Positions 2,466 through 55,468 of a DNA stretch of 64,000 bases are shown piece by piece; position 1 is the stretch's first letter, and each line of letters opens with the position of its first letter. Source of the DNA: Cyanidioschyzon merolae (lineage: Eukaryota); assembly GCA_000091205.1 (NCBI GenBank), contig AP006498.2; one strand, 5' to 3'. The position numbers and the translations under genes were made by a program. The notes under the pieces were generated by a model. That model had not been told where the DNA came from and did no database searches. It saw only the letters and a program-made list of their open reading frames with translations.

Positions 2466-2650
2466 GCTCGAGCTGGCGGTTCCGAGCGATGCACCTCTTC
2501 GATAAGAGGCAGCGTAGGCTTGCTCAGACTCTGTTTGCGCCTTACCCTCAAGGAGCGTAGACTGGATTCGCTTGCCAGTGGTGCTTCCGAACTCTATGTA
2601 AATCGGAATTCAGAGTGCGGTGTCGGCCTAATTACCGCCTAAATGCATGA

Positions 2651-3905
2651 GTGATTGGAATGGAACATGGAACTGGTCGCCATGTTCCTAAATTTCGGAT
2701 TTTTCCGAACTTTGTTTCGTGGCACTGCCACCGCATTCGGAGTGCAGCAATAAGGACTTTTGGATTCATGCATAGTTTTCAGGTTTTCGGTCATTTTTTG
2801 GAATGGTTCCTTTGACGCTGTGCTGCTGAATTTCGTTAAGATACGGTCCTCAGGTGGATTCGCGACGTCCTCGAACAACGGTTCGAAGAATGGCCGGTTT
2901 TATCATCCCATTCAGGCGTGCAAGAATGCACGCTTCTCTTGTCCTCAGGCACAGCATGCGCAAAATACATATTCTTCTTTTTTTGATCCATCCGTTTGAC
3001 GGTTTCGCGTAGGCGCCGCACTTCGCACTGGTAGGTGCTCAAGGCAAAATCTTGACGTCTTCGCTTGAGGACTGGTTCGCGAGCTCATACCGAAAGTTCA
3101 CTGAACTTGGTACGTCAAGTAACGGATTTTGCTGGAAATGCAAATCCTCCTTTCTTGAAGGCAATCGGCGGAACGGGACGCAACAGCAGTTAGGTGTCGC
3201 CCTCGGGATATGCTCGCTGAACGCTCCCCTTCCTCTTTTGTTCGTGTGGCAAAGGGTTATGTGCTCGGATATGAGCCCTGACAAAGAACGCTTTCAGTGG
3301 AGCGCGCGTCACAGCTTTACATGAACGAGGCGTAGACGGATCGAAGCTTCTCGAATTGTCCTCCGACTTTGGGTTTTGTATTCAATACTTGTTTCATCAT
3401 GAGCAACGTCGCGTTCCACAGATCCTTTTTCGGATAGAACGGCGTACCGAGGAGTGTGCAGTGGACAACCTACTCACCGAGGGACTTACCCTGAAGAGGC
3501 TCGTAATCGTCCTGTACGGTATTGGGCACGGAAACGAAGGAAGGCATCAAAGGGCGCGCATTGAACCCGTCAAGGGTATATAACGGGCAATGAAGAGAGC
3601 GCTCTCGCGCTCAAGGGCAGCGCCCGAAGGACGAGTAGGATTAGCAAGAGGTGTACTGGTCCCATTGGAACACCTAACAGCAGTCAACTGCCACCGCTAC
3701 GAAGCCGGCTTTCAGGCTTTATGCACAGATGATGAAAATGGCAAGTCAAGCGTAGCTCGCAATTTCCACCTGCACATGAAATGCATAGACAAGTTCCCGA
3801 AGCGGTAAAACCGGGACATGCACACTGCCATCAGCATCCTTCGACTGATAATAACAGAGCTGGGAGACAAGAGAGATCGGTGTATTTAGGGCCGGAGACA
3901 CAATA
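2651..3905 (+). mobile_element. Family-A compact TnpB/Fanzor-like element, copy A1 (degenerate)
   Basis: It begins with the shared terminal motif 'ATTGGAATGGAACATGGAACTG'. 3300-3900 is homologous to 11680-12245 and 54500-55035 at the nucleotide level. The C-terminal coding remnant is '...LHMKCIDKFPKR' followed by 'RDMHTAISILRLIITEL', a CxxC-like motif plus RuvC-III 'D..AI.IL', broken by stops and frameshifts. Confidence 0.5.
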
Positions 3906-4266
3906 GAGGTCCAGGGAGCACTCATGGATGAGGCCTCCAAAGGCCGCTTTTGACGGCACTGAGTGCTATCTAAATATTAGTGTGCACGGTCGAGTTAGAC
4001 GATCCGTTCCATTTTATTCTTGCATGGGTATAAATAGATGAGCATGTGAGTCGAACCACCGCTAACAGGAACTCGAAATGCTCTGGCGGCGGTCCGGGTG
4101 CACTGGTCAACAAGTGACGCCATGGCTTACGCCACGAAAGGTAAAACCCGTATTGGGATGATCTGTACGGTCGCTTTCGGGCTCGGGTACCCTAGAAGCT
4201 TTGCGTTCCGTTCGTGCGCTTCGTTGCCTGGTTGTGAGTTTTCTATAGGTACGAGAAGCTCAGCGA

Positions 4267-10149: not shown

Positions 10150-10997
10150 GTCAACCGTTTCAAGCGACGCGATGCGACTCGTGGTATCGATGATTCCTTC
10201 ATCGACGTCGTCGAGCGCTGGCGCTATATTCGTGGTGGCGGCGGCAGTGGCGGCGGCGGCTATTCGTCAACTGCCGTACGGCGTTACCGCCTCACAGGCG
10301 TGCCTCTCGAAGCTTGGACACAGAGGTAGCGGTGGTGTAGCGTGTGCGTCCGGGGAAACGGAAACGCTGACGCTTTGTGAACGCTGCTGCGGGATCGCAG
10401 TGACTGGGAGGGAGCACACGCCTCCGAGTCAGAGCACGTGCACGGGGTTGGCTAGCATAGTGCTGTGGAAGGCTGCTCGAGGCTGACAGCAGTCACCTGG
10501 GTACGAGCTCGCTGAAGAGAGTCTGAGGCAAGGCGCTTGCGGGAGTGGTGCGCTCTTGGCACAGCGATTTCACAACTGGGAAGCGAGTGCGGTAACGTCG
10601 GTGCGCGTGTTGCTAGGGCGGGGTGATGGCTGATGAGGAGGTACGTGGACCTGCGTGCCTGTGCTCCTGCTGTTTGGCATTGTGAGTGGGCGTGAACGTC
10701 GTATTTCGAGTTGACGGCACCCGGAGGTTCGCTGGATCGAGTCAGTATTCGTTAGCGAAGCAGTGCTGCGGGGTGTTGGCGTGCGATCGTGTGCGTTGTA
10801 GCAATAGCGCCGTTGTGCTAGTGACTTGCCGCGTGCATGAACCAAGCGTCCCTTCCTTGGCGGAGTACTCGCATGGTGGCCTTGGAGCTCGGAAGCGTCC
10901 CCAGAAGCAATGAAGTCCATGCTCTAAAGACTGGCAGTGTGCGCGTCTCTGGTGGCTTTTGGACAGAAGCACCGAACCTGGTCTACGCGCGAGAGAA

Positions 10998-12250
10998 ATT
11001 AGAATGGAATACTGAACTGCATGCTCGATTCCTGCCTTGCGGATTCATTCCCGAACTTTTGTCATGTATACAGCTTCGATATCTGTAGTCCATGAAAGAG
11101 CTCTTTCGGATGCGAATGCGTCTTCGGACTCGCAATCGTCCATTTCGGAGTGACTCCATCGGCGCTGTGCTGCTCGAACTCAAAAAGTCACCGAAATCAA
11201 GACGATTCTCGACGCAGCAGAACGACGGTTCGTAAAATAACTGGTATCGTTATCCGACGCGCACGAACAAGCCTCCACTCTTGTCTGTTCCCTAGGTGTA
11301 GCATGCTCAGATCACGCAAGCTCCTAGTTTGCCGATCTTTCTGTTTTCAGGCAAATCGTAGAGACGGCAGTTGGCGCCGCAGGGATGGCGATCAGGAAAC
11401 TCAACGTTGTCACTTGACGGCTTGTTCACAAGATGGTGCCGAAAGCTCACTACACTTTTCATGTCTAATAATTGATTCCGTTCGAGCGACACATCCCGCT
11501 CTCTTCATGCCTATCGACGAGACTGAACTCGACAGCAGCCGCAGCAGCCGCAGCATGCTTCTGACGAGGTATGATCCCAGAGGCGTTCGTGTCTTCTGCT
11601 TCCATGGAAAAGCTTCTTGGACTCGGACGTCGATCATCGCAGCGACCGCTTCCATTTGCGAGCGGATCACCGGTTTGCACGAAGGGAGCGTAGACGGATC
11701 GAAATAGCTCGACTTGTCCCCGAGCCCGTATTTTCCTTCCGGTACTTGTTTCACCTTGGACAACACCGCGTTCCCCAAATCGTCTAAAGAATGGAGCAGC
11801 ATGCGCTTGTGCGTGCAAGGGACGGAGCACTCGCCGGCGTATTGTCCAGAACGGGCCCGTGATCGTTGGGTACGGCACCGGGTACGGAAACGGAGTAGCG
11901 CATGCTGGGCGATGCTTCTCCACTCGGAAAGGGCTTGTGCCAAGCGAGGCATTGTTCATTTATGCGCCAGGGGGCAGCGATCAGAGGAGGCATTGCGGGC
12001 GTATTGGAACACCTGGCCACAGCCAAGCGTCACCGCTGCGAATGGCGCACCCATTCTGTCTACGAAGACGGTGGAACTGGCAAGCGAAGCGCAGGTCGCA
12101 GCTTGAACCTGTTCGTCAAGTGCGCCAACAAGTACCGGAAGCGGGTGCATTGGGACGTCAAATCTGCCATCAACATCCTTCGGCAGCTGATAACGGAGCT
12201 GGAGCGACACGAGAGACCGGCATATTTCAAGCCGGATGCGCCATAGAGGA
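10998..12250 (+). mobile_element. Family-A TnpB/Fanzor-like element, copy A2 (degenerate), forming the outer end of the left palindrome arm
   Basis: It starts with the terminal motif 'ATTAGAATGGAATACTGAACTG'. The C-terminal peptide '...GKRSAGRSLNLFVKCANKYRKRVHWDVKSAINILRQLITELE' matches the TnpB zinc-finger plus RuvC-III pattern (FxCxxC..H.D.NAAINI). The reading frame is broken upstream, switching between frames 0, 1 and 2. Confidence 0.55.
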
Positions 12251-12637
12251 ACAAAGAGCAGTCGTAGATACCGCGGGCAAAGGCTGGTGTCGTAGGTGAG
12301 AACTGGATGAGACCCAGTATAATGATTACATATGCCCGAGTTTGTTAAGTGGAACGTTTCAATTTATTCTGAAATGGACGTAGGGCATCGATGTCCTTCA
12401 TCAAGCACCTTGTGCAGCACAGAAAATGAACCAGAATTGTTCGCTTGTGTGTCGAGGCGGCAAACTCCTCCGCACAATATCCCCGGCCGAAATGCTCTCA
12501 CACGGGCTCAGAGACATCTCTCTGGCATTGACATCCGATGCTCCAGGCTAGCTCGTACTAGGTGGCGCACTCTTCTAATACGAGACAGCAGACATGCACG
12601 TGTGTTGCACCGAGCGACAACGCGCCGGCGACGTCCT

Positions 12638-14014
12638 TCAGTAGCCCAGGTACCTCACTGGGGGTTTCTTCTTCCGACGTGTGCCGTCTGCGAAGCCGTC
12701 CCGACGATCATCGGTTTCATCGCTATCACCGCGTAGGTCGTGCACAAACCCCCGGAGGCTGGCCATCACTTTGTGGGCTTGGCGTCGCAGTTCAGCAGCG
12801 CGAAGCTGCTCGAATGCATCGTAGGTTCGCGAGCCGCTCGTTCCGACATCCCGCGGTCTACGCCGCAAGTGCTGAAACTTTTGCCATCCAGGAACCGCCT
12901 CATACCGGTGATCGCGCATAATTGGAAAGCAGTTGAAACCCTCCTCGCCGGGAAGTGGCTCCTCCGCAATAGACTCAATGGTGGGCAGTTTGATGCAGTG
13001 GTCATCCACCATCGTGGCAAAATCTACGCGTTGACTCGACAAATAATCGTCAAAGTCCAGGCTGTCAGGCGCAATGCGAAATACATTGGCAAGCTCGTCT
13101 GCGACATGCAGCCAGCCAATGTAGATGAGAAAAACAGAAAGCACGTAAATAATGTCCAGCCAGCGATAGTTTCCAATATCGATGCTGCTGGACGTTGCGC
13201 TCAATAAATTCAGATTTCCCGCGAGCAGTATGACACAAATCACGTAGATGCGCACTGTTGCGTTCACGAGCTGGCGGTACATCAGCGGAACTGGAACCCA
13301 CATGGGCACATATAAATAACCGAAATATCCGCGCACGAGCGCAAGCTGCTGCACAAGCTGAAGATGAACGAATTCCGTGATGCCGTAGCGGTGGTTCTGA
13401 TCACGCAGGCGAGAAAGCAAGTGCCCAGCCCACATGACTGGCATCGTCCACTGGGCTCTGTCTACATCATTCTCCAGCCGGTATCGCTCCTCAGGTGTGA
13501 TCAAGCCAATACGTTCCATGGCCTCAGTGGTGCGGTACGCATGATCACCGCCAAGAAAAACATCGCGAAGCACCATAGCGAACGGAATGCAGATCCACCG
13601 GACAATGAGTTGCTTCAACCGTGCAGCGCCGATAGGGTCGTTATCATCATACACGAAGGACGTCATCTCGAGAGCAATATTGTAGGCAGCGATTTGGCCA
13701 GTGCCACACATGACAACACGAACACTCCACCAACGGGAATAGATTGTGCTAGTATAAAACCCCAGCATAAAGGTAAGAATTGGCGAAAGGACACTGACAA
13801 GTGCTGCGAGAGTATTCAGGAAGGGTATCGGCCATTCTGCAACGTAGAGCTTGAGCGCTATCACGAGCACTGCGGCACCGATCCAGGAAAGAAGTTCAAA
13901 GAGCAACCGCTGGACCAATGAGCCGTACCAATGAAAGAAGACTCTAGTCCATGAAAGGGGAAATACATAGTCTTTCCCGAACGTGGCTATGGGATCCTTG
14001 TAGTAGATTGTCAT
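12638..14014 (-). CDS. Bestrophin-family (RFP-TM) anion channel, copy 1 (identical to copy 2)
   Basis: 'ILTFMLGFYTSTIYSRWW', 'PVPLMYRQLV' and 'YIGWLHVADELANVFRIAPDSLDFD' align with the bestrophin TM2 (VLGFYV..RWW) and C-terminal ([23 protein letters not shown]) signatures. It is predicted to have several TM helices. Confidence 0.85.
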   Translation of the reverse strand: MTIYYKDPIATFGKDYVFPLSWTRVFFHWYGSLVQRLLFELLSWIGAAVLVIALKLYVAEWPIPFLNTLAALVSVLSPILTFMLGFYTSTIYSRWWSVRVVMCGTGQIAAYNIALEMTSFVYDDNDPIGAARLKQLIVRWICIPFAMVLRDVFLGGDHAYRTTEAMERIGLITPEERYRLENDVDRAQWTMPVMWAGHLLSRLRDQNHRYGITEFVHLQLVQQLALVRGYFGYLYVPMWVPVPLMYRQLVNATVRIYVICVILLAGNLNLLSATSSSIDIGNYRWLDIIYVLSVFLIYIGWLHVADELANVFRIAPDSLDFDDYLSSQRVDFATMVDDHCIKLPTIESIAEEPLPGEEGFNCFPIMRDHRYEAVPGWQKFQHLRRRPRDVGTSGSRTYDAFEQLRAAELRRQAHKVMASLRGFVHDLRGDSDETDDRRDGFADGTRRKKKPPVRYLGY

Positions 14015-14476
14015 CTCTGGGAAACAAACGTGCCGCGTACCAGGTAAAGGCGTCGCTGGCCTGTGGAAACCTCTTCGGGCTCTTCAAATACGCACAAACA
14101 CCGCTTGGGTGCTTGCGCAACTCTGATTTGTGCTTTGGTCGTCGAACGGGGACTCGCTCGCTCTTGAACAGCAGCCGCACTCGAGCCGTGTGCACGTTTC
14201 CAACCTACGAAAACGCGAACTCCCGCTTCCAGCAGGTATCCTGATCTTGTTGCCTCTACGGTCAGGACGCGCAGTAAGCCTGGTTCACGTACGTACCGAC
14301 TATTTACCGGTGATAGTCGTCCGATCGCAGTGAGACCTACGGCGTCCCGTGTGTTTCGCAATCTGTCTGCAATAGCCGTTAGACAACCTGTTTATGGTTG
14401 CTTTGTGGCTCTGTGGCAAACACACACGCCGACACCGAACACTTTCCAAAAGTCGAACGACGCCAGCGCTGTACAG

Positions 14477-15033
14477 TACTGGCGAGAAGCCCGCCCTAGA
14501 CAAGAAGTCTCCAGCTGACGTACGGACGCCTCCCAGTCTTCATGGACCGGGCACCTACTACTGCTTCCAATTGTTTCTCATATAGTTCCACTTTGGGAGG
14601 TTGCCCCCACAAAATTCTCTCTTGTCAGCGCTGGAGGTCTGCTTTCCAGCACCGCACATCTCCTGATATTGATGGCGGCATTAAAGTCTCGGTTCACAAA
14701 CTCCATACGTTTCTTGCCATCACTGGTTGTACTCACTAGTGCGAGTAGCCCTCGAACTTTCGCCCTTGTTTCCATTTGCTCCTCCGTCAGCGGTCCGTAC
14801 TTTTCTATGTCTTCAGGGCTCCGCTGGCACTTTTCCATCCCGACCCTCTTAAGTACGCACCCCAGTTCATGGTGTGTATAGGACGTTCGGAACCCATCTA
14901 TCGGTATCGTAACAAAACGCTGTGCGCACTCCCTGTATGTTCTTGTCGACGGAGCTGGTACACATTCTTTTTGGGTCTTCCATCGCCCTGCTCCGTATGC
15001 CACTACGAGCCTCTGACGCTCGTCCTCCTTCAT
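14477..15033 (-). pseudogene. Partial inverted copy of the 3' half of the central TnpB/Fanzor-like gene, including its conserved 3' tail
   Basis: The 181-aa ORF 14578..15123(-) shares '...KEDERQRLVVAYGAGRWK...EFVNRDFNAAINIRRCAVLESRP...SQSGTI' exactly with the 233-aa ORF at 15272..15973(+). The copy stops at the arm boundary. Confidence 0.7.
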
Positions 15034-15099
15034 AATCCATTTCCGTCTTCGATATTGTACGTGACGAAGCATGAAGATGAGAAGGAGGCGGGTCCTGCG

Positions 15100-16080
15100 A
15101 CGCAGAAAGTGCATGAGAACCACTTTGTCGTTGGCGCGGGCCCTGGGAACACGAATATCATGACCATCACAACACGCCGTTGTGGGGATGATGGCGTCGA
15201 CGGCAACTTACGTCAAAAAACACACGCGTGTTTTAAAGCGCTAAAGAACGAGATATTACCGAGAGTTCGGTGTGATGAATGCAAAGAAGAAAAGTGGAAC
15301 GTGGAGTGCTGGAGTGAAAAAGCACCTGGAAGCGATCAGCCAGGTGACGAGCCGAGAAGCGGACTTTAAAGCTTTTCGGAAATTCATGGAAGTTCGTGTT
15401 GCTCACTGGGATGCGCTGTGGGAGGGGCATACAAAGCCCCGGTGGGCTCGTCTGCGAATGAATCTATACTGTGGCAAGCAGCGCGCATTCGCGAACTTTT
15501 TCAACCAGCTGAGCGCCGTGAAGGAGGACGAGCGTCAGAGGCTCGTAGTGGCATACGGAGCAGGGCGATGGAAGACCCAAAAAGAATGTGTACCAGCTCC
15601 GTCGACAAGAACATACAGGGAGTGCGCACAGCGTTTTGTTACGATACCGATAGATGGGTTCCGAACGTCCTATACACACCATGAACTGGGGTGCGTACTT
15701 AAGAGGGTCGGGATGGAAAAGTGCCAGCGGAGCCCTGAAGACATAGAAAAGTACGGACCGCTGACGGAGGAGCAAATGGAAACAAGGGCGAAAGTTCGAG
15801 GGCTACTCGCACTAGTGAGTACAACCAGTGATGGCAAGAAACGTATGGAGTTTGTGAACCGAGACTTTAATGCCGCCATCAATATCAGGAGATGTGCGGT
15901 GCTGGAAAGCAGACCTCCAGCGCTGACAAGAGAGAATTTTGTGGGGGCAACCTCCCAAAGTGGAACTATATGAGAAACAATTGGAAGCAGTAGTAGGTGC
16001 CCGGTCCATGAAGACTGGGAGGCGTCCGTACGTCAGCTGGAGACTTCTTGTCTAGGGCGGGCTTCTCGCCAGTACTGTAC
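15100..16080 (+). pseudogene. TnpB/Fanzor-like RuvC nuclease pseudogene (family B, long copy) at the palindrome centre: RuvC-I-like block, bridge, RuvC-II-like, degenerate zinc finger, RuvC-III, plus a conserved 3' non-coding tail
   Basis: In the frame of ORF 14776..15369 the sequence 'HFVVGAGPGNTNIMTIT' corresponds to TnpB RuvC-I 'aGvDvGikdfaivT' with Asp replaced by Gly. After a frameshift, the 15272 frame reads 'KKKSG..SREADFKAFRKF' (compare TnpB 'RRKKGS...NKRQDFLHKL'). 'VAHWDALWEGH' sits at the RuvC-II position with E replaced by D. 'IPIDGFRTSYTHHELGC' is a degenerate 'TSxxCxxCG' motif. 'EFVNRDFNAAINIRR' is an intact RuvC-III. Confidence 0.6.
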
Positions 16081-16536
16081 AGCGCTGGCGTCGTTCGACT
16101 TTTGGAAAGTGTTCGGTGTCGGCGTGTGTGTTTGCCACAGAGCCACAAAGCAACCATAAACAGGTTGTCTAACGGCTATTGCAGACAGATTGCGAAACAC
16201 ACGGGACGCCGTAGGTCTCACTGCGATCGGACGACTATCACCGGTAAATAGTCGGTACGTACGTGAACCAGGCTTACTGCGCGTCCTGACCGTAGAGGCA
16301 ACAAGATCAGGATACCTGCTGGAAGCGGGAGTTCGCGTTTTCGTAGGTTGGAAACGTGCACACGGCTCGAGTGCGGCTGCTGTTCAAGAGCGAGCGAGTC
16401 CCCGTTCGACGACCAAAGCACAAATCAGAGTTGCGCAAGCACCCAAGCGGTGTTTGTGCGTATTTGAAGAGCCCGAAGAGGTTTCCACAGGCCAGCGACG
16501 CCTTTACCTGGTACGCGGCACGTTTGTTTCCCAGAG

Positions 16537-17913
16537 ATGACAATCTACTACAAGGATCCCATAGCCACGTTCGGGAAAGACTATGTATTTCCCCTTTCAT
16601 GGACTAGAGTCTTCTTTCATTGGTACGGCTCATTGGTCCAGCGGTTGCTCTTTGAACTTCTTTCCTGGATCGGTGCCGCAGTGCTCGTGATAGCGCTCAA
16701 GCTCTACGTTGCAGAATGGCCGATACCCTTCCTGAATACTCTCGCAGCACTTGTCAGTGTCCTTTCGCCAATTCTTACCTTTATGCTGGGGTTTTATACT
16801 AGCACAATCTATTCCCGTTGGTGGAGTGTTCGTGTTGTCATGTGTGGCACTGGCCAAATCGCTGCCTACAATATTGCTCTCGAGATGACGTCCTTCGTGT
16901 ATGATGATAACGACCCTATCGGCGCTGCACGGTTGAAGCAACTCATTGTCCGGTGGATCTGCATTCCGTTCGCTATGGTGCTTCGCGATGTTTTTCTTGG
17001 CGGTGATCATGCGTACCGCACCACTGAGGCCATGGAACGTATTGGCTTGATCACACCTGAGGAGCGATACCGGCTGGAGAATGATGTAGACAGAGCCCAG
17101 TGGACGATGCCAGTCATGTGGGCTGGGCACTTGCTTTCTCGCCTGCGTGATCAGAACCACCGCTACGGCATCACGGAATTCGTTCATCTTCAGCTTGTGC
17201 AGCAGCTTGCGCTCGTGCGCGGATATTTCGGTTATTTATATGTGCCCATGTGGGTTCCAGTTCCGCTGATGTACCGCCAGCTCGTGAACGCAACAGTGCG
17301 CATCTACGTGATTTGTGTCATACTGCTCGCGGGAAATCTGAATTTATTGAGCGCAACGTCCAGCAGCATCGATATTGGAAACTATCGCTGGCTGGACATT
17401 ATTTACGTGCTTTCTGTTTTTCTCATCTACATTGGCTGGCTGCATGTCGCAGACGAGCTTGCCAATGTATTTCGCATTGCGCCTGACAGCCTGGACTTTG
17501 ACGATTATTTGTCGAGTCAACGCGTAGATTTTGCCACGATGGTGGATGACCACTGCATCAAACTGCCCACCATTGAGTCTATTGCGGAGGAGCCACTTCC
17601 CGGCGAGGAGGGTTTCAACTGCTTTCCAATTATGCGCGATCACCGGTATGAGGCGGTTCCTGGATGGCAAAAGTTTCAGCACTTGCGGCGTAGACCGCGG
17701 GATGTCGGAACGAGCGGCTCGCGAACCTACGATGCATTCGAGCAGCTTCGCGCTGCTGAACTGCGACGCCAAGCCCACAAAGTGATGGCCAGCCTCCGGG
17801 GGTTTGTGCACGACCTACGCGGTGATAGCGATGAAACCGATGATCGTCGGGACGGCTTCGCAGACGGCACACGTCGGAAGAAGAAACCCCCAGTGAGGTA
17901 CCTGGGCTACTGA
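16537..17913 (+). CDS. Bestrophin-family anion channel, copy 2 (identical to copy 1)
   Basis: 458 aa, 100% identical to 12638..14014(-), with the same bestrophin motifs. Confidence 0.85.
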   Translation: MTIYYKDPIATFGKDYVFPLSWTRVFFHWYGSLVQRLLFELLSWIGAAVLVIALKLYVAEWPIPFLNTLAALVSVLSPILTFMLGFYTSTIYSRWWSVRVVMCGTGQIAAYNIALEMTSFVYDDNDPIGAARLKQLIVRWICIPFAMVLRDVFLGGDHAYRTTEAMERIGLITPEERYRLENDVDRAQWTMPVMWAGHLLSRLRDQNHRYGITEFVHLQLVQQLALVRGYFGYLYVPMWVPVPLMYRQLVNATVRIYVICVILLAGNLNLLSATSSSIDIGNYRWLDIIYVLSVFLIYIGWLHVADELANVFRIAPDSLDFDDYLSSQRVDFATMVDDHCIKLPTIESIAEEPLPGEEGFNCFPIMRDHRYEAVPGWQKFQHLRRRPRDVGTSGSRTYDAFEQLRAAELRRQAHKVMASLRGFVHDLRGDSDETDDRRDGFADGTRRKKKPPVRYLGY

Positions 17914-18306
17914 AGGACGTCGCCGGCGCGTTGTCGCTCGGTGCAACACACGTGCATGTCTGCTGTCTCGTATTAGAAGAGTGCGCCACCTAGTACGAGC
18001 TAGCCTGGAGCATCGGATGTCAATGCCAGAGAGATGTCTCTGAGCCCGTGTGAGAGCATTTCGGCCGGGGATATTGTGCGGAGGAGTTTGCCGCCTCGAC
18101 ACACAAGCGAACAATTCTGGTTCATTTTCTGTGCTGCACAAGGTGCTTGATGAAGGACATCGATGCCCTACGTCCATTTCAGAATAAATTGAAACGTTCC
18201 ACTTAACAAACTCGGGCATATGTAATCATTATACTGGGTCTCATCCAGTTCTCACCTACGACACCAGCCTTTGCCCGCGGTATCTACGACTGCTCTTTGT
18301 TCCTCT

Positions 18307-19559
18307 ATGGCGCATCCGGCTTGAAATATGCCGGTCTCTCGTGTCGCTCCAGCTCCGTTATCAGCTGCCGAAGGATGTTGATGGCAGATTTGACGTCCCA
18401 ATGCACCCGCTTCCGGTACTTGTTGGCGCACTTGACGAACAGGTTCAAGCTGCGACCTGCGCTTCGCTTGCCAGTTCCACCGTCTTCGTAGACAGAATGG
18501 GTGCGCCATTCGCAGCGGTGACGCTTGGCTGTGGCCAGGTGTTCCAATACGCCCGCAATGCCTCCTCTGATCGCTGCCCCCTGGCGCATAAATGAACAAT
18601 GCCTCGCTTGGCACAAGCCCTTTCCGAGTGGAGAAGCATCGCCCAGCATGCGCTACTCCGTTTCCGTACCCGGTGCCGTACCCAACGATCACGGGCCCGT
18701 TCTGGACAATACGCCGGCGAGTGCTCCGTCCCTTGCACGCACAAGCGCATGCTGCTCCATTCTTTAGACGATTTGGGGAACGCGGTGTTGTCCAAGGTGA
18801 AACAAGTACCGGAAGGAAAATACGGGCTCGGGGACAAGTCGAGCTATTTCGATCCGTCTACGCTCCCTTCGTGCAAACCGGTGATCCGCTCGCAAATGGA
18901 AGCGGTCGCTGCGATGATCGACGTCCGAGTCCAAGAAGCTTTTCCATGGAAGCAGAAGACACGAACGCCTCTGGGATCATACCTCGTCAGAAGCATGCTG
19001 CTGCTGCGGCTGCTGCGGCTGCTGTCGAGTTCAGTCTCGTCGATAGGCATGAAGAGAGCGGGATGTGTCGCTCGAACGGAATCAATTATTAGACATGAAA
19101 AGTGTAGTGAGCTTTCGGCACCATCTTGTGAACAAGCCGTCAAGTGACAACGTTGAGTTTCCTGATCGCCATCCCTGCGGCGCCAACTGCCGTCTCTACG
19201 ATTTGCCTGAAAACAGAAAGATCGGCAAACTAGGAGCTTGCGTGATCTGAGCATGCTACACCTAGGGAACAGACAAGAGTGGAGGCTTGTTCGTGCGCGT
19301 CGGATAACGATACCAGTTATTTTACGAACCGTCGTTCTGCTGCGTCGAGAATCGTCTTGATTTCGGTGACTTTTTGAGTTCGAGCAGCACAGCGCCGATG
19401 GAGTCACTCCGAAATGGACGATTGCGAGTCCGAAGACGCATTCGCATCCGAAAGAGCTCTTTCATGGACTACAGATATCGAAGCTGTATACATGACAAAA
19501 GTTCGGGAATGAATCCGCAAGGCAGGAATCGAGCATGCAGTTCAGTATTCCATTCTAAT
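18307..19559 (-). mobile_element. Family-A TnpB/Fanzor-like element, copy A2' (mirror of A2) at the outer end of the right arm
   Basis: Reverse-complement duplicate of 10998-12250. ORF 18305..18649(-) encodes the same '...FVKCANKYRKRVHWDVKSAINILRQL' peptide. Confidence 0.55.
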
Positions 19560-20372
19560 CTGATAGCCCCGTCGGCGACGAGGATCTCAGAGTCGGATTG
19601 CACCTGCACTGATTCCGGGGATCTTGGTGTGCATGATGGAAATCTTTGGAAAATGTTCTGCGAATGATGGAACACGGGAAGTGTTGGACGCTTCCACCGT
19701 GCGCCCAGCTCTTTCTGATGCCTCCGAAAATGGAATTTTCGGAGCGCTCTCGGACACTAGTCTTGTGTGCGGTGCTTTGCACTCGATGGACGCAAAGAGT
19801 ACCGAAGCGAATCCTCACGAAGTTACGGATTCGCGCTCATTCAAGCAATCCCGGAGACATACCATAGAGTTGACATCGACGTTGCGCTGCCTCGGACCTT
19901 ACCAGGGATTGGTCACAGCACAAACGTCGGCGTCGCTCATGCTGCAGCGCCGGCGCTCTAGGCTCACTGTGGGCCCCCCTATCAAGCACTTGGCCCCGGA
20001 GGATTGCACGAAGCGACGGTTATCTCCAAAGAAAAGCGCGCGTGGTTGTTGTTGGGGCTTGAAGATCTGTTGCCGCGGAATGGACGCTCTCTCTGATGCC
20101 GTCAACCCTCGCGCAGTCAAGGATTCCTTCGAGTGTGTAAACGAATCTACACACCCCTGTGGGAAATCGCTCGTGCGAGAGAAGATGTACTTTTAGGGAC
20201 AATAATGTATGTCTTGTACGTCCGTGCGCGTGGCCTCGACAGCAGCGCAGCACCTGCACCTTGCAGTCGTTTCGAGCGCGCAGCCAGTGCTTGTTGTAAA
20301 CGACCTAGTCTAGGGTTGCTGGGGCGGTCCTCGCGTCAGGCTGTCCGCCCGACACACCTTGCAATAGGCACC

Positions 20373-21815
20373 ATGCCGATTATGTACATGGATCCCGTGG
20401 CGAACCTGGGGAAGGACTACGTTCTTCCCCTTTCCTGGGTGCGCATATTTCTCTACTGGCACGGAAGCCTCTTGCAGCGCTTGCTGTTCGAAGTGTGCAT
20501 CCTGTTCGGTCTCGCTGCTTTTATTATTGCCATGAAGCTTTACGTTGCAGAGTGGCCACGCTTCCTTCTAGAAGTCTTTGCAAATATTGTCAACATTCTT
20601 TCAGGCGTGTTGACGCTCCTGCTGGGGTTCTATGCCAGCACCATCTACAGCCGCTGGTGGTACACGCGCACGAACATGTTCGGGACCGCGCAAGGTGGAG
20701 TGTACAACTGCGGTTTCATGTTGAACGCGCTCGTCTACGACGATGAGAATCCGGAACTTTGCGCCCGCTTTAAGCAGCGGTTTCTCCGTTGGATGAACCT
20801 CGCTTTCGGAATCATGCTCATGGACGTCACCTCTGGTGGATCGCATCTCTTCGAGTCCTTTGATAGCATGGAACGCATCGGTTTGGTGACCCCCGAGGAG
20901 CGCTATCGCCTGGAGCATGACGTGGAGCGTGTGCGCTTCACGCTGCCCATTATGTGGGCGGGTCATATGCTTACGCGCCTCCGGGATAATAATCACCAGT
21001 TTCACATTACGGATCGGGTACACATGCAGCTGTCGATCGAGTTGGCTTACTTGCGGCAGGGTCTCGGTGGATGCTATCTCATGAAGAACACACCGGTGCC
21101 GCTTCTCTATGTGCAGTTCGTGGAGGTTGCTGTCCGAATGTACGTTATTAGCATGATTCTGCTTGTAGGTGATTTGAACTTGCTGTCTGGAACCTTTCAA
21201 GAACGCGGCAACGATAGATGGGTCGATCTCGTCTACATCGCAGCGCTGTTTTTCATCTACGTCGGCTGGCTTCATGTAGCGGAGGAACTTGCAAACCCCT
21301 TCCGAATAGCCCCGGATGGACTCGATTTGGATGACCTTCTCTCCGGACAACGATGCGATGTGATGACCATGTCCGACTCGACGCGTCAACGTTTACCGAA
21401 ACCCGAGGTGATTCAGGAAGCGCCGCTTCCAGGAGAGCAGGGCTGGTATTTGCCGATTATAACCCGAGATCACAGCTACGAGCCTGTTCCCTACTGGTAC
21501 AGTTTTTGGTACAATCTCATCCGTCGCCGAAAGTGCAGCACCGCGCCTTCACCTCATTCCATTATTTGGGGATTCTATCCCGAGAAACAGCCGCTGCTTA
21601 CCGAGCCAGAAAAGAAACATGCAGCATCAAATCCATCGGCGTGGTCCAACGTAGTGCATGTACACCCGGGAGCTTCACAACATTGGAACGTGAGTCACCG
21701 CAACGACGGGCCAGCGCCCATGGCCTCACATTGCCCAAGCGGGCTGGTCAGTTCGGGTTTCGGCGGACTTGGTGTGGATAGCAGCAGTGCTGACGGCGGC
21801 GGCAGTGTATTATGA
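20373..21815 (+). CDS. Bestrophin-family anion channel, divergent paralog 3
   Basis: 'MPIMYMDPVANLGKDYVLPLSW', 'LLGFYASTIYSRWW' and 'YVGWLHVAEELANPFRIAPDGLDLDD' match the bestrophin motifs. The six-frame ORF starts at 20133, but homology to copies 1, 2 and 4 begins at the Met at 20373. It has a long Pro/Ser/Gly-rich C-terminal tail. Confidence 0.8.
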   Translation: MPIMYMDPVANLGKDYVLPLSWVRIFLYWHGSLLQRLLFEVCILFGLAAFIIAMKLYVAEWPRFLLEVFANIVNILSGVLTLLLGFYASTIYSRWWYTRTNMFGTAQGGVYNCGFMLNALVYDDENPELCARFKQRFLRWMNLAFGIMLMDVTSGGSHLFESFDSMERIGLVTPEERYRLEHDVERVRFTLPIMWAGHMLTRLRDNNHQFHITDRVHMQLSIELAYLRQGLGGCYLMKNTPVPLLYVQFVEVAVRMYVISMILLVGDLNLLSGTFQERGNDRWVDLVYIAALFFIYVGWLHVAEELANPFRIAPDGLDLDDLLSGQRCDVMTMSDSTRQRLPKPEVIQEAPLPGEQGWYLPIITRDHSYEPVPYWYSFWYNLIRRRKCSTAPSPHSIIWGFYPEKQPLLTEPEKKHAASNPSAWSNVVHVHPGASQHWNVSHRNDGPAPMASHCPSGLVSSGFGGLGVDSSSADGGGSVL

Positions 21816-23154: not shown

Positions 23155-23649
23155 TGCAACCGTCTAGCGAATCGTCTCCGAGAAACCAGAAATTAACAGT
23201 GATTTAAGAATCGGAGATGCAACGAAGAAAAGTTACGCAACAATATTCACTGTACACAGTTGTCCAGGATCGTCTACAGTGCATGTGCATGCACGCGGTT
23301 CCGAGATGACGCCTCGGCACGCAGCAATGCATGGCGTTTCGGGTTGCCTGAGTGGCGGCGCAATCAGCATCGCGGCAAGCGCCCGCGATAGGCGCAGTAT
23401 GCCGAGAACTCTTTGCCCGCAGACAAACAACTAATCTCTATGTCGAACGGAGGGACTGTTCTTGAGCTAGTGGAACGTTGAAGCGTCTGAAGTAATACGC
23501 AACTATGATGGAATTGAGCAGCATTGTGAAGTGCATTGGAGGTGTTCGTTCAAGTTTTCTTGTCATAGTTTTTCACCTAAATTGTGTTCCACTCCTCCGG
23601 TGCGTGTCATCAAATGCGTGTTCGCGGTTTATAGCGGATTCGTTCGAAG

Positions 23650-24150
23650 TAGGTTCATTTCCAAAAATAAAAATCTAAGGATCAGGTATCGACATGCAAG
23701 GCGGGGATCCAGGAGGACCCTCATCACTGGCTGCCTGAGTAAAAAACGAAACAAATCCTCTTCTCGCCGATCATCGAGCGAAGAAGAGCAAGTGACCAGG
23801 AAGAAAAAGGCGAAGAAGATGACGATGAGAGATCGGCGAGAAAATGTATTTGGTCAACGGAACGATGACGTCCCTTTGGTGGCAAAGAGGGCTCGCGTTC
23901 TGACAACTATTTTAAAGGTGAGCTCAACCAGAGGCAATAAACGCATAGAGTTCGTGAACCGAGACTTCAACGCCGCCATCAATATCATGAGATGCACGGT
24001 GCTGGAGACGAGACCCGAGGAGCTGAGGCGATCCAAGTTTGTGAGGCAGCCTCTCAGGCTCGTTCTGTGCATGAATAAACCTAAATCGATAGCAGGGTCG
24101 CGGTCGAACAGGGCAGGGACGCGTCTACGGGTGGGTATTCACGCACCCTG
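23650..24150 (+). mobile_element. Family-B short non-autonomous TnpB/Fanzor-derived repeat, copy B2
   Basis: It begins 'ccaaaaataaaaatctaaggat' like 1030. 23740-24140 aligns with 31610-31990 ('...tcatcgagcgaagaagagcaag...', '...cagcctctcaggctcg...'). It encodes 'KRIEFVNRDFNAAINIMRCTVLETRPEE' (RuvC-III) with no upstream RuvC-I or RuvC-II. Confidence 0.55.
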
Positions 24151-26272
24151 CTTGCTCGTGGGACTTTGTTTCTTTCATTGACGATAACAGTGACGATAAT
24201 CACGGACAGAATATCCACCTGTGTGCACTTTGTAAAGCTCCTGAAACCTAGGCCACAGTCGAGTAACGAAGCTCATTGTCTACCGTTCAGGGTAGATCAA
24301 GAGACAGACTTCGGGGTCGGCGTGGACCCGGGAGCTGCAGGATGTCACGCCCGATTTTTAACCTCTGAATGAGGAGGCCGGCGCCAAAGACCTACTCGGA
24401 AGGAAGCTGACCCTGTTCAAGCTTTCCAGGGCAGGGGATTATCGAGATTCGGGCATAACGTTCGCCAGCAGGGATACCAGCAAGTGGAACGACGGCGTCC
24501 GGGCCCGACTCTCGACGCTCTGGACACCGTATCGAGCAGACGGGGGCATGCTTTGCACGCTTGATTCATAGATCATATGAGCCTCAAAACGTCTCCTGCG
24601 GGCGGTCTTTGGCAGCAGTACACACGGGCGCGCGGGGTCGGAAACCGATTCGGTTGAACGGAGGCAGCCATCGTGTATGCGCCAACTTGTCAGATGTGTT
24701 CGAACGAGAAATGATCGACACGTCGCGCTGTTTCGCGGAAGCCTAAGGCGCTGGACGTGGTTTAACGCGCATGAATGCGCTCCTACTCTTCGACCAGAGC
24801 GTGCAACGAGTGCAGGAACCGATCCTCAACGATACCCCAGCCCTGAGTTCGGGACGGCGTGCACGCATCCCGAGCACAGGTGCATGCTGAAACTGGTAGC
24901 AAAGAAGAGACGGAAATAAAGTTGGATGCTCGAGCTGGTGTACGGTAAGCTGACTGTGTGTCAGATGGCGAGCGAGTCGCAAGTGCGACGCGTGCTACAA
25001 TCTGAGTCCACCGCCATCCATGAGAGAAAGCAACTTCTGCACCGATATCTCAAAGCCTTGAAAAGCGTACGGAAATGTCTCGTGCCTCCGAAGAGTTCGG
25101 TGGCTTTGTGTGGCGCGAGCTTTCGGGAATTATTTCGTATCCTATCCATGCATTGTGCTGAAACACAGAAGAGTATTTATAAAAAATCAGGGCCAGGAGC
25201 GAGGGGGCGGCCTTCGTTTCTCGCCCGGAGCAAGGCTCTGGTATGGTACGATTCAGCTACCGAACGACATTGGTGCACCGTACACATACATCGTCAATGA
25301 TTTTCCTCGGCAACTGATACACCATTATTTGAGACGACGAATATAGAACAGAGTCAAATTGATGGATCAAAGCAGGTGAGCGGGGGCATAGACCTTGCGT
25401 TTCCGCAGACGGATTCCGGATGATGCCGCTTGTGTGATTTTTTCGTTGACAAGTCGCCCGCAGGGGACACGAACCTCCAAGTTCCCACAGAGAGGACACT
25501 TTGAGGCCAGTGCTGGACCGCACGGCCTGCAAGACCTGTGTTCGCTCCATACCCCTGTAGTATCTCCTATGGACGTGCTTTCCACGACTTATTCTGTCCA
25601 AACGAGCGTTTGCCCACAAAGATCTGGTCCATCAAAGTTGAGTTCAAGGCACAAGCGCAAGTAAAGCCAATTTTGGGCCCTGTACAATATGCAGGTGGCC
25701 TTCACAGCATACGCTTCGTTCCTCGTTTACGACGCGGCGAACGAGTGCTTCCGCGGAGGCGACCACGCACACAACCCCTGAAACTGAGCAGCTACAAACT
25801 GCATTAGTGGACCTGGAAGACCTGTTTCTCCTGCTTTGTATTCGTCTCGTCATCGAGCCCAGCGTATTCAGTAAACTTCCGTGCAAGTCACGGTTTACGT
25901 GCAGGTTTTCTTCGTAGACTCCGCCTTGTCCTGGAGAGTTTACGCTCGATTACGAGCAGCCTCGTAGGTAAACTTCGAAACAATTCGCCATTTACGTGCA
26001 GATGCCTATCCAGATGCTGCGACGTCCTGCTGAAATCACTCTCGTAGACGTGCAGTTTCGTGCAGGCCGCCCCTAGTTCTGTTCGAACTCGCGCGTCCAG
26101 CAGCGAGCCTCGTTGCTGAGCGCTGCGCTCGGCACCGAATGCCTCTGCGGCTTGCACATGCTCGCTCAGAAGCGTTCGTGTTGCACTGGGGGGTTCATCG
26201 CAGCGTACGCCAAGTCACTGTGACCAGATCATAACGTTTCGGCTTCCGCTACGCGGCTTATACGGTGAGTTC

Positions 26273-30275: not shown

Positions 30276-31051
30276 GGACGCAGTTTGTGGTCCGGCGCAC
30301 AAGGCAAGCCGCCACGCGTCCGCGCAGGCAACAACGTGCTCACGGGGAATACTGGCGTGTCGGTGCCGAGCCTGCGCGCGGCACTAGCGCCCCAGTCCAA
30401 TATGTCCATAAGATCTACTTGATTCACTAGATGTCAAGTTAAGGACAGGTATGAGACTGCTCCCAGGGGCACCCATCCGGATGCTACCGCTGATTAAGCG
30501 ACGCGTTCCGGTGTTCACGGGTGCATGGCTCGTCGAGCGGAACCCCTTTTCCCAAGGTCAGCGAATGCACTGCACAGCGCTTGGCACTTGCGCCTCGAGA
30601 CAGTTAGGCAGTTATCGGAGCGCTTGAGGCAACTTGGGGATCGCCAGCGGGGGCCAGCGTGCCACGACTGAACTTGGTGCGGCCGGCTGACTCGCCTATC
30701 GCCTCCGCCCACTGCCGGGTTCGGCATGGAGCCGAGGATGCTCGACCTTTCGCACTGCGCGGGTTCGAGATTTGTTTTATTCGGGTATTTGAACTGAAAT
30801 TTATTCCAGACCAGCTGATTCCACTCGAATGCTTTTCTGCAGTGTATGGCAGGAGATCCAAATCACGATGCAACGTACCGTATAGATCGTAGACGAATTG
30901 CATGCAGGATACATGTATGACTGAACAGCGCAGAGAAGAATGCGTTCGTACTTCATGTCAGTCATACGATGGTACCGTGATGGTTGAGGAACGCTGAAAG
31001 ATCTAAGTAGACGCGCTTCGCGCCAAAATCCGATATTTTTACAGACTGTTT

Positions 31052-44330: not shown

Positions 44331-45212
44331 CGAGGTAATCGACGGTGAGCGACTTGCTATGTTCTGATTCGTCATGCAACCATGCCCGCAAACACTCTCT
44401 GCACTGCTACTTGCATGACGCGATCGATATGCAGCGAAATGTGTTGTGCTTGCCAGGCTTCCGGCAGCTTTGCGTTGAACGAACTTTCTAGGATATCGTT
44501 TAGTGCTCAGTATGAGCATAGCGCTGACAAGTCGCAGACTTTCGATGGCAAAAATCAGTGGCACTGCATCGAACGACTGGCTTCTATCCTGGTGCAAGCC
44601 AGTTGTGTGGTACGCTTCAGCAGTTCCTCAATGCTACAGCGCCGTGTGTATCCACCGGAAGCAGTTTTCCTGGCCAATTAGAAAGCGATCATAGTGTTCC
44701 ACGATGCGATACAACTGATTCCATTTCCTCATCGCCAGGTCGCGACAGCTCCCGGCTCCGGCGGCGGCCTCTGTAAACTGCACCGGTCTTGGCCCGACTC
44801 GAGCAGTGCAGCGCACTCTGCGGAATATTTTTCATTCGGATGGATTGTACAGCGAACCGTCTCCAACCCGGTAACCCGTGGCCGTCTCGTATCGCAACGG
44901 TGATCAAATACGCGAAAACCGCTACCCCGAACAGCGCTGATCGTTCCCGGGGCTCGCGAATATTCGCGTACGCGCTAGAGCTCATCGTCCTATCCTCCAT
45001 CGCTCTAATCGAGTACAAGATATCAGCTGTGGCGAACGATCCTCGCCAGTCTCGCAAAAAACGCGGAAGCCTCCGCGATCCTCAGCTGCGCATCCGGTGA
45101 GGCTGCACCAAACGCCCAAACGCCTCAGCACCGCACTCGAGGCAACCCCAGCTCGATGACGATTAGATCGCATGTGCTCATGACGCATACCGCCGAAGCT
45201 GCAAACCAACGA

Positions 45213-52860: not shown

Positions 52861-53850
52861 TTAAAACCCGGGATGCACTCGCAAGTCACGTCCGCGGCGT
52901 ATTTCAGCATCGAGGTCCTCGGCCGCACGTCGCGGATCTTCAGCACCCAGGATAGCTGATATGCACGCTATACCTGCGGCCTTACCCTGGGAAATACATT
53001 GTCTAGCGTTAGAGATTCCAATACCTCCGACAGCAAGCACCGGGAGTGGTGCAACCGCTTCCACGATGTGTGCCAGTCCACGGATACCAATCGGTGCACC
53101 CGCATCGAGTTTTGTCTGTGTGCCAAATACCGGGCCACAGCCGATATAGTCCAACCGTATGGGGCGTTCCGCGGTACTCGCTTGTTTCAAAGCTGTGACT
53201 TCAGACAACGAGCCAGCAGATGCGCCTATGATCCAGTCAGCAGGCACGAGCTTCTGTACATATTCCAAGGGCATATCTTCTTGGCCAACGTGCAAGCCAT
53301 CCGCGTCCACCGCAAGCGCCAGGTCTAGCCGATCGTTCATGAGAAAAGGAACACCCGCTGCAGCACAAACCGCACGCAGTCGTTTGGCGAGTTCCAGCGT
53401 CTTGCGCAGTGAGCTCCTCTTATCTCGCAGCTGGACCGCTCGCACGCACCCAGAGGCCAACGCACGCTCCGTAAGCTCTTCTAGTGACTGCCTCGACCCT
53501 AGTTGTGAAACATAGGCTACGTCTGCAATGAGATACAAAGAGAGATCGGTGCGCGTGCTTCTGAACGGTGTCAGGCGGTCACCTGCTGCATGAAGTGGTA
53601 CAGCGTAACGTTCCCCGCGTCTTCGACATCGCCGCTGTTCACCGTGCAGGTCGAGCGAAGCAGCTCGGTGCCTTGCGAACCAGCTGCCGCTGCCTACTGC
53701 TCTTCGTTGGATGAAACTTAAACCTGTTGCCGTGAACGCAGGCGTGGTGCCGCAGCAGTGCCCCAGCAGGCACGACTGCGTTCCCATGGAAACGGGCGAG
53801 CGCTTACCGCGAGGTCGTTCCGAACGTGTTGCCAGATTACAATGGAACAC
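52861..53850 (-). CDS. thiE: Thiamine-phosphate synthase (ThiE / TMP-PPase) with ~100-aa N-terminal extension
   Basis: 'LYLIADVA', 'VQLRDK', 'FLMNDRLDLALAVDADGLHVGQEDMP', 'IGASAGS', 'DYIGCGPVFGTQTK' and 'PVLAVGGI' are the ThiE motifs in order. Confidence 0.85.
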   Translation of the reverse strand: MFHCNLATRSERPRGKRSPVSMGTQSCLLGHCCGTTPAFTATGLSFIQRRAVGSGSWFARHRAASLDLHGEQRRCRRRGERYAVPLHAAGDRLTPFRSTRTDLSLYLIADVAYVSQLGSRQSLEELTERALASGCVRAVQLRDKRSSLRKTLELAKRLRAVCAAAGVPFLMNDRLDLALAVDADGLHVGQEDMPLEYVQKLVPADWIIGASAGSLSEVTALKQASTAERPIRLDYIGCGPVFGTQTKLDAGAPIGIRGLAHIVEAVAPLPVLAVGGIGISNARQCISQGKAAGIACISAILGAEDPRRAAEDLDAEIRRGRDLRVHPGF

Positions 53851-55035
53851 TGAACTGGACAGGTTGTACCTGCTGTGCGATTCTTTTCGGAACTAATTTT
53901 TTTCGCTGTACTTCCTTGACATTGGAGGTGCAGCGACAAGGGCTTGCGAATTCATGTGTATTTTGCGGATTCACGGTCGTGTATTCGGAGAGGCTCCTTC
54001 GAGACGCGGCTGTTGAAATCGGGTCCGTCATCGGAATCGAGATGATTTGCGACGCACTCGAACGATGCCTCGTAAAGTGACGGACATCATGATTCAATGC
54101 ATGTGTAGCATTCGCCGTGCTTCACATATGCCAGCGTGTAGCATGCTCGCATCATGCACGCTTCAAGCTTTCGATTTTTTCATTTGAAGGCAACTGGTTC
54201 GCGGAGCAATCTGTGGCGCCCGATTCACGACTAATCAGATAGAACCTTGTCCGTCGACGATTTGTTCGCAAGTTCATGCAGAGATTTCCTGAAACTCCTC
54301 ATGCCAAATCGTCGATTCGCCTCGAAATACAAATCCTCTCCTGTTTGTTGACATCCGCGAATCGCGATTCGACGGCAGCGGAATCATTCACGTACGGGAA
54401 CAGCTCCATGAGACTTCCGTCCCTCTTCTTCCCATGGAATCGAGTCTCGGTCTCGGACTTGCATTATCAAATGGATCGCATGTACTGAAGCCTGCGTCAT
54501 CGCTGTGTACGAAGCGGTCGTCGACGGATCGAGATTTCTCGACTTGGTCTCCAGCCTAGATTGTCCCACCGGTACATGTTTCATCATACACAGCATCGCG
54601 TTCCACCCATGCATTCTATCGAGTGGAACAGCGTAAGCTTGCACGCACAGCGGACACAGTACGCGCCCAGTGTATCACCCAGAAGCAGCCTGTGATCGTC
54701 GTCCACGACAACAGGCGCGGAAACAAATGAGAATAGCTGGGAGAGCCCACTGTACCCGTCATGCGCATGCAGCAAACGGCGAGGCAAGCGCTCACGCGGC
54801 ACAGGGCTACTCTCGAAGGAGCCGATGTGCTGGACACAGACGGGAACCCAGCGCAGTGTCCCCGCTGGGAAGCGCACCCCGAGACTCGATGCAAAACGAC
54901 ACGAGTATGGCACGCCAAGCATTGACAGCAACTGCTGCTTCTGCATGGAAAGCGCTGACAACACCTGGACTCGTCGATATCGGGACGTTACAACTGCTGT
55001 CAACATCCTTCAACTGCTGACAGCGAAGGTTTAGA
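53840..55035 (+). mobile_element. Family-A TnpB/Fanzor-like element, copy A3 (degenerate)
   Basis: It starts with 'ATTACAATGGAACACTGAACTG'. 54500-54600 is homologous to 11680-11780 and 3320-3420. The C-terminal peptide is '...SIDSNCCFCMESADNTWTRRYRDVTTAVNILQLL' (CxxC plus RuvC-III). The frame is broken upstream. Confidence 0.5.
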
Positions 55036-55468
55036 TATAGGACAAACCTGCATCTTCCAAGCTGGATCAGAGGGAGTGAGCAGCAGGAAGAAGAAGCAGT
55101 CACAGAAAAAGCGCGCAAACGCTGGTGCGAATGACAGCGGTTACTAGCCCAAGTTTCTTTGCACATATACCAACGTTTTCTGATATGGACTTTATAAGAG
55201 TGATGAGCCCGCTCTGGACTGCCGCATGACAAGCGCCTGGGAACGTTTGAAATCGTATCCGCCGTTGAAGCATACAACGCATAGGCAGTGCTGCTACCGA
55301 GACCGGCAGCTGCGGCGATACGACCTGGAGACAGATACACCCCAGCGTTTACACTGTCCATTAAATCCATTTATGATCCATTTCATCCAACAAAATCGCA
55401 CCCGCATGCACGACCAGTAGACGCGCGTGCGCGTTCCGTACTCGCGATCTCCGCCAGCCTGAGGATTC

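Follow-up and report, generated by a model that had tools for sequence, protein, structure and literature searches.

Tc1/mariner-type transposons that carry a Fanzor1 gene, such as PUl-1 and PGv-1, are known from oomycetes and from algal and giant viruses (Bao and Jurka 2013, Mob DNA 4:12, PMC3627910). In Cyanidioschyzon merolae, a red alga, the known Fanzor1 family is CMe-1A, with about 150 copies that are each ~80% identical to its consensus (PMC3627910). Here, we describe a further family from this alga, Family A, and we propose, with a probability of about 0.9, that it is an old, dead and non-autonomous IS630/Tc1/mariner element that derives by deletion from a mariner–Fanzor1 composite. 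Composites of this kind are already known, and Family A in C. merolae is new as far as the literature was searched: we found neither a mariner-type element nor a mariner–Fanzor1 composite reported from this species in the literature covered.

Family A copies and their limits

The window, by which we mean the whole 64,000-nucleotide stretch of DNA that was analyzed (GC ~55%), contains three long open reading frames (ORFs) identical to C. merolae 10D proteins, namely BAM81819 (myo-inositol-1-phosphate synthase), BAM81823/BAM81824 (bestrophin), and BAM81837 (Cu-ATPase), which are carried by a chromosome of 908 kb. Introns are almost absent in this red alga, and long ORFs are therefore expected. 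No tRNA or Rfam matches were found in the 64-kb window. An initial annotation of the window recognized four copies of Family A, each ~1.25 kb long and each beginning with a conserved left-end motif. This 22-nt motif, ATTRSAATGGAAYAYKGAACTG, does occur exactly four times in the window (2654, 10998, 19559 on the minus strand, and 53836), against a chance expectation of 0.01, and the copies align over their whole length in self-BLAST with pairwise identities of 64–69%, including the internal nucleotide homology to which that annotation had pointed (3286–3547 in copy c1 with 11644–11903 in copy c2). The count of four needs qualification, however, given that copies c2 and c3 belong to opposite arms of an inverted duplication of 4041 bp (10998–15032/19559–15519; 99.85% identity), and thus only three independent copies are present in the window.

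The ends of the element were set by aligning 10 left ends and 6 right ends of Family A copies. The unit is 1368–1395 bp long rather than ~1.25 kb, starting ~12 nt upstream of the ATT given earlier and ending 125–155 nt further to the right, and every copy with enough flanking sequence has the same left end and the same right end. Terminal inverted repeats (TIRs), which had been thought to be absent, are present: they are ~25 bp long and imperfect, agreeing at 18 of 25 positions at the level of the consensus, and the left terminus reads CAGCCGTGCCAGATTAGAATGGAAC directly after a TA. The motif at 2654–2675 in c1 is the inner part of this left TIR. Across 10 paralogous lineages, the left end is as similar to the consensus as the rest of the element (identity 0.72 vs. 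0.73 overall), and no special conservation of the motif is seen among them. TA dinucleotides lie on both sides of c1 and c2, which are two of the five copies in which both ends could be read. The flanks of the other three, CA/TA in L011, TG/AA in L001, and GA/TT in c4, differ from TA by at most one base each and are consistent with decayed TA. The combination of TIRs with TA at both ends is a hallmark of Tc1/mariner/IS630 elements. The features of the four copies are as follows.

Copy c1
2642..4030, plus strand: whole Family A element, 1389 bp (alignment of 6–10 paralogues; TIR and target-site duplication positions)
2640..2641, plus strand: left TA target-site duplication, directly outside the left terminus, with its TA counterpart at 4031–4032
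2642..2666, plus strand: left TIR, consensus as given above; 18/25 positions equal the reverse complement of the right end
2720..3426, plus strand: decayed IS630/Tc1/mariner DDE transposase remnant, comprising a putative helix-turn-helix (HTH) followed by DDE_3 as far as the second catalytic Asp motif (consensus nt 73–778 projected onto c1)
3428..3998, plus strand: Fanzor1 C-terminus remnant (Fanzor1 HMM on the consensus; consensus stop position 3996–3998)
3665..3682, plus strand: RuvC-II-like motif, EHL
3689..3700, plus strand: CHRY motif
3809..3841, plus strand: RuvC-III motif, NRDMHTAISIL
4006..4030, plus strand: right TIR (GTTCCATTTTATTCTTGCATGGGTA)
4031..4032, plus strand: right TA target-site duplication
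Copy c2
10986..12380, plus strand: whole element, 1395 bp; TA at 10984–10985 and 12381–12382
11066..11783, plus strand: transposase remnant
11785..12344, plus strand: Fanzor1 remnant
Copy c3
18177..19559, minus strand: whole element, mirroring c2 within the inverted duplication of 4041 bp; the outermost 12 nt (19560–19571) are unlike those of c2
18774..19491, minus strand: transposase remnant
18213..18772, minus strand: Fanzor1 remnant
Copy c4
53824..55191, plus strand: whole element, 1368 bp; flanks GA and TT; inner part of the right TIR deleted
53906..54615, plus strand: transposase remnant
54617..55179, plus strand: Fanzor1 remnant

Several other features lie around these copies. The arms of the inverted duplication (10998–15032 and 15519–19559) are separated by a 486-bp spacer, and the center of the duplication falls in a CMe-1A Fanzor1 copy. 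On the outside, the duplication stops exactly 12 nt into the left TIR of Family A, and c2 and c3 are unrelated in their terminal 12 nt. The duplication doubles a bestrophin gene (12638–14014 and 16537–17913; BAM81823/BAM81824) and therefore accounts for two identical paralogues among the four of the bestrophin family that lie within 18 kb, the others being at 20133–21815 and 28893–30302. A tandem repeat with a 72-bp period is found at 2214–2460, ~180 bp upstream of c1 (2220–2387 and 2292–2459 are 87% identical).

Beyond the window, searches by protein words and a single metagenome scan yielded numerous contigs of Cyanidioschyzon-like organisms that are 95–99.9% identical to the window copies or within a locus group, together with further paralogous groups represented by L001, L011, L018, L023, L024, L026, and L027. 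Including the window copies, there are at least 10 Family A lineages; this copy number, which comes from the window and these searches, is a lower bound. The copies are ~73% identical to the family consensus, nearly uniformly along the element. Between copies we find neither codon-position bias nor a synonymous versus nonsynonymous signal in any frame, which argues that the decay was neutral, and the pattern reads as that of one old transposition burst followed by neutral decay. As the initial annotation stated, all copies appear inactive, with stops and frameshifts throughout each of them.

Two gene remnants in the family consensus

Single copies have no significant match to any protein family, with nothing in Pfam for their raw ORF fragments or for the long frame of c2, and the homologies described below are visible only in the blind majority consensus of the family. 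The 5′ ~705 nt of the 10-lineage consensus correspond to the N-terminal 225–230 residues of an IS630/Tc1/mariner DDE transposase, and consensus nt 73 to ~780 can be read in one frame as MYSLDIRS...FVAIDETAF...GYAPRGSRL...EGSVDGSKFLDL...CFIMDNIAFHKS. Pfam DDE_3 matches this consensus with 40.7 bits (E = 2.7e-10; cut-off 28.6 bits), a score that improved with the consensus, having been 24.5 bits when 6 lineages were included. HTH_33 (E = 9e-4) and HTH_Tnp_Tc3_2 (E = 0.015), both under their own cut-offs, lie upstream of DDE_3 in the expected order, and in tblastn this putative helix-turn-helix region is colinear with the transposases of the relatives described below from residue 1. In a tblastn search of 72,556 plasmids (7.3 Gb), the transposase reading matched 625 records; among the matches listed, the best E value is 5e-7 and query coverage reaches 98%, and the annotated features under the 15 plasmid matches listed are all IS630-family transposases. 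Residues 5–250 of a Methylobacterium IS630 transposase align with consensus nt 77–805 (E = 5e-15), whereas the PUl-1 mariner transposase, too distant from the Family A consensus, gives no tblastn match. The consensus retains the motifs IDETAF and FIMDNIAFHKS, with the first catalytic Asp in IDET and the second in MDN. Homology to four independent transposases of 295–315 residues stops at residues 225–250, right after DNxxFHKS, and the DDE_3 alignment never covers profile positions 118–146. The DD(E/D) triad is therefore incomplete, the homology ending before the third catalytic residue, and on this basis Family A is classed as a non-autonomous derivative.

The 3′ ~500 nt of the consensus correspond, in another frame, to the last ~150 residues, or about a quarter, of Fanzor1. 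Consensus nt ~780–1278 read ...KKLVIVGYGIGHGNGGGHRGEPSVPVKGMYRAMKQAF...DIxEHLTTAKCHRCE...NRDVHTAISILRLLITELERQERPAYL, and the individual copies retain parts of this peptide (HMKCIDKFPKR*NRDMHTAISIL in c1, FVKCANKYRKRVHWDVKSAINIL in c2, and FCMESADNTWTRRYRDVTTAVNIL in c4). We gathered diverse Fanzor1 proteins related to CMe-1 by an exhaustive representative search of 1.84 billion proteins and built an HMM of 654 positions from 77 of them plus CMe-1. This HMM matches the consensus over positions 479–625 with 43.7 bits, the best of 2000 shuffles reaching 7.0, and the alignment takes in VIVGYG, EHLTT, NRDxxxAIxIL, and the RP tail. Similarly, the score of Pfam Cas12f1-like_TNB (formerly OrfB_Zn_ribbon) rose from 16.7 to 20.9 to 22.4 bits as the consensus improved and is 24.9 bits (E = 2.3e-5) on the 3′ segment alone, which is above the scores of bona fide Fanzor1 proteins. 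The coding remnant with a zinc-finger and RuvC-III signature that the initial annotation had seen is thus borne out by the consensus and profile searches that it had put forward, and the 3′ part is indeed the C-terminal zinc-region and RuvC-III part of a TnpB-superfamily nuclease. HMM positions 1–478, comprising REC, WED, and the RuvC-I aspartate, have no match in any frame of the consensus, and the room of this missing N-terminal part is taken up by the transposase remnant.

The assignment to Fanzor comes mainly from the HMM. Direct matches of the Fanzor reading to the intact relatives are weak (tblastn E = 0.002; BLASTP E = 7e-6), and its comparison with the CMe-1 family is marginal (hhalign P = 0.088). 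There was no tblastn match at E ≤ 10 to TnpB genes of the 72,556 plasmids, no NCBIfam match, and no TnpB, Fanzor, or Cas12 match in PDB searches with either the consensus or the profile. As regards a guide-RNA (fRNA) scaffold at the 3′ end, the consensus 3′ 228 nt are predicted to fold no more stably than shuffles (z = −0.88), and covariation is not expected in dead copies. Some candidate readings were dropped: IIDSxRxTNP and later VLDSDLG as RuvC-I, and FTELVTSNNGF as the Fanzor TDG strand, proved to be wrong-frame readings of the transposase region.

The window also contains other Fanzor1-related sequence. Copies or fragments of CMe-1A, 70–88% identical to its consensus, lie at 14461–16090, 1288–1926, 23471–24568, and 31672–32076, of which 1288–1926 matches the 5′ 635-bp TE-N2_CMe unit of CMe-1A (82%). 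A 928-bp segment is duplicated at 98.7% identity (42642–43569 and 50221–51148), and adjoining the duplicates are decayed Fanzor1-like segments (43548–44514 and 51427–52572; 15–33 bits with the Fanzor1 HMM) of a different Fanzor1 family, ~27–33% identical to CMe-1.

Intact relatives and a proposed origin of Family A

Among Fanzor1 proteins, the remnant is most similar to P0230, P0285, P0282, and P0260. We inspected four loci, those of P0230 and P0282 and those of P0314 and P0317, which are cluster-mates of P0230 and P0260. In all four, a DDE_3 gene of 247–295 residues lies directly upstream of a Fanzor1 gene of 635–652 residues on the same strand. In L034, the gene pair is enclosed by 33-nt inverted repeats (326–358 and 3394–3426), which delimit a 3.1-kb element, and in L032 the sequence AATGGAACA lies 17 nt inside a TA, as it does in Family A; the inner TIR motif of Family A is common to the left ends of both. 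The transposases begin with MYSLDR in L034 and MYNIDR in L032, compared with MYSLDIR in the Family A consensus, and that of L032 matches the consensus with E = 1e-21 in BLASTP. In tblastn, residues 1–225/229 of the relatives' transposases align with consensus nt 74–778/784 (E about 1e-23), and residues 477/487 to 600/619 of their Fanzor1 proteins align with nt 775/778–1182/1227. The two alignments abut, which places a junction at consensus nt ~778, corresponding to ~3426 in c1, ~11783 in c2, and ~54615 in c4. These relatives are metagenome contigs with a GC content of 41–59%. The genes around the pair on L032 and on the contig of P0314 (metagenomes ERZ27313591 and ERZ1426647) encode RNase III, an SprT-like protein, a glycosyltransferase, and a BTB/BACK protein, a setting that recalls giant viruses or protists.

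Based on these observations, we propose that the parent of Family A was a composite of ~3 kb with the order TIR, DDE transposase, Fanzor1 RNA-guided nuclease, TIR. A single internal deletion would have taken out ~70 residues at the transposase C-terminus, the third catalytic residue among them, together with the spacer between the genes and the N-terminal ~480 residues of Fanzor1 (REC, WED, and RuvC-I), joining the two gene stumps out of frame at consensus nt ~778. Because the junction is common to all copies, this deletion presumably preceded amplification. Even the ancestral 1.39-kb unit would then have been noncoding cargo between its TIRs, since the parts needed for both activities were deleted, yet having kept both TIRs it could have been moved in trans by the transposase of a full-length relative, by cut-and-paste into TA. 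It would have spread in this manner to at least 10 loci in Cyanidioschyzon-like genomes before movement ceased, and each copy would since have decayed neutrally to ~73% identity with the consensus. We see no sign of a present function, given the neutral-looking decay, termini without special conservation, and an unremarkable 3′ fold. The initial annotation had suggested that an intact master copy may exist elsewhere; one of 1.25 kb is not to be expected, since no functional protein could be made even from the ancestral consensus, and the parent would instead be the ~3-kb composite. Neither the window nor the Cyanidioschyzon-like contigs yielded a full-length parent, and word-indexed searches of 5.8 billion protein clusters with both consensus readings returned no intact relative, only further decayed copies.

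Three other explanations were weighed. The initial annotation took Family A for a compact, TIR-less, IS1341-like element that encoded only a TnpB/Fanzor2-like protein of ~400 residues and is now frameshifted. The RuvC-III and zinc-region signature is real, and one plus-strand frame is open for ~330–340 codons in both the 6- and the 10-lineage consensus. This open frame, however, has no tblastn match in the 7.3 Gb of plasmids, the Fanzor homology is limited to the last ~150 residues, and the 700 nt upstream match DDE_3/IS630 transposases in another frame with E values of 1e-10 to 1e-23. Given also the TIRs and TA flanks, and a remnant that matches Fanzor1 and not prokaryotic TnpB genes, we consider a TnpB-only origin very improbable. 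The other outcome that the annotation had envisaged, namely that the copies are fragments of a larger, unrelated transposon, largely describes them, as they seem to be a deletion derivative of a larger composite.

Marginally better placed, though still improbable, is the view that Family A is simply a Tc1/mariner/IS630 element whose transposase gene is decayed but complete and whose 3′ likeness to Fanzor arose by chance. A length of ~1.3–1.4 kb, TIRs, and TA flanks would all suit a simple mariner, the c2 frame at 11096–12103 is interrupted by a single stop, and YSPGYHPEE and EEMWW resemble, weakly and by eye, the tail of a transposase. We dropped this putative tail because homology to the four intact transposases stops at DNxxFHKS, and the DDE_3 alignment likewise does not reach profile positions 118–146. 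Furthermore, the Fanzor1 HMM gives the next 500 nt a score of 43.7 bits, far above any shuffle, and the closest intact Fanzor1 genes adjoin transposase genes of this same lineage. The least probable explanation makes Family A a subfamily, diverged or truncated, of CMe-1A, which is abundant in C. merolae, present in the window, and also contains Fanzor1 sequence: neither the CMe-1A consensus nor the CMe-1 protein has a blastn or tblastn match to any Family A copy at E ≤ 10, the profile–profile comparison reaches only the P value of 0.088 given above, and CMe-1A is described as TIR-less, with ends unrelated to those of Family A. Thus, we strongly favor descent by deletion from a mariner–Fanzor1 composite.

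A second composite-looking family is found at 62–1288, with a 70%-identical paralogue at 30837–32076. Its ORF at 691–993 reads like the C-terminal portion of a DDE transposase of IS630/mariner type (VILLDE...PYSPWVIPIDRLF), with E values of 1.4e-5 in phmmer against IS630 and 0.044 for Pfam DDE_3. Directly downstream lies a CMe-1A-like Fanzor1 3′ end (1042–1288), which suggests that a mariner-type vehicle may be linked to Fanzor1 of the CMe-1 type as well. This arrangement hints at a broader and, in our estimate, rather unlikely scenario in which Family A is a fossil of the entry or spread of Fanzor1 in C. merolae on Tc1/mariner vehicles and the unclassified CMe-1A branched off later from a composite of that kind. 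In a stronger version, the Fanzor tail may have been retained because a guide-RNA and right-end module was needed in cis for mobilization.

Comparison with known systems

Family A has no bearing on present-day function and appears to be an ordinary relic. What had the appearance of a miniature eukaryotic TnpB element, a tempting misreading, is better understood as the wreck of a mariner–Fanzor1 composite. With Family A, a second transposon family, previously unclassified, is added to a genome that is among the most transposon-poor of eukaryotes. The family also illustrates how homologies to two different proteins, hidden in every single copy, can emerge from a blind consensus.

With Fanzor2/IS607 and IS1341-like TnpB-only elements, Family A has in common only the C-terminal zinc-region and RuvC-III signature. 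Those elements encode a whole TnpB and have neither TIRs nor target-site duplications, whereas Family A has TIRs, TA flanks, a DDE remnant, and a Fanzor1-type tail (VVxYG, E-x-x-T-T, and the RP tail). CMe-1A and its TE-N2_CMe unit resemble Family A in that they occupy the same host, are also old, contain Fanzor1 sequence, and adjoin Family A copies in the window (at 14461–16090 and 1288–1926). However, the two share no similarity that is detectable at the nucleotide level or, for proteins, by BLAST, and CMe-1A is 3.2 kb long, lacks TIRs, and includes some copies with a still intact Fanzor1, compared with the 1.39-kb, TIR-bounded Family A. Judged by their sequences, they are different families.

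The likeness to bacterial IS630 elements is confined to the 5′ part, where the remnant aligns over 98% of its length with 24–29% identity among the matches listed, has a putative HTH followed by DDE_3, and carries the motifs DE(T) and DNxxxHK. Family A differs from them in its eukaryotic host, in the deletion of the third catalytic residue, and in the added Fanzor1 tail. The closest described systems are PUl-1 and PGv-1, with which Family A shares the order TIR, mariner-like DDE transposase, Fanzor1, TIR on one strand as well as TA target duplications. It is set apart from them by the loss of the transposase C-terminus and of about three quarters of Fanzor1, which makes it non-autonomous, whereas L032, L033, and L034 show the PUl-1/PGv-1-like architecture intact in the Family A lineage. 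Taken together, these comparisons suggest that Fanzor1 in red algae is tied to Tc1/mariner vehicles, as it is in oomycetes and giant viruses.
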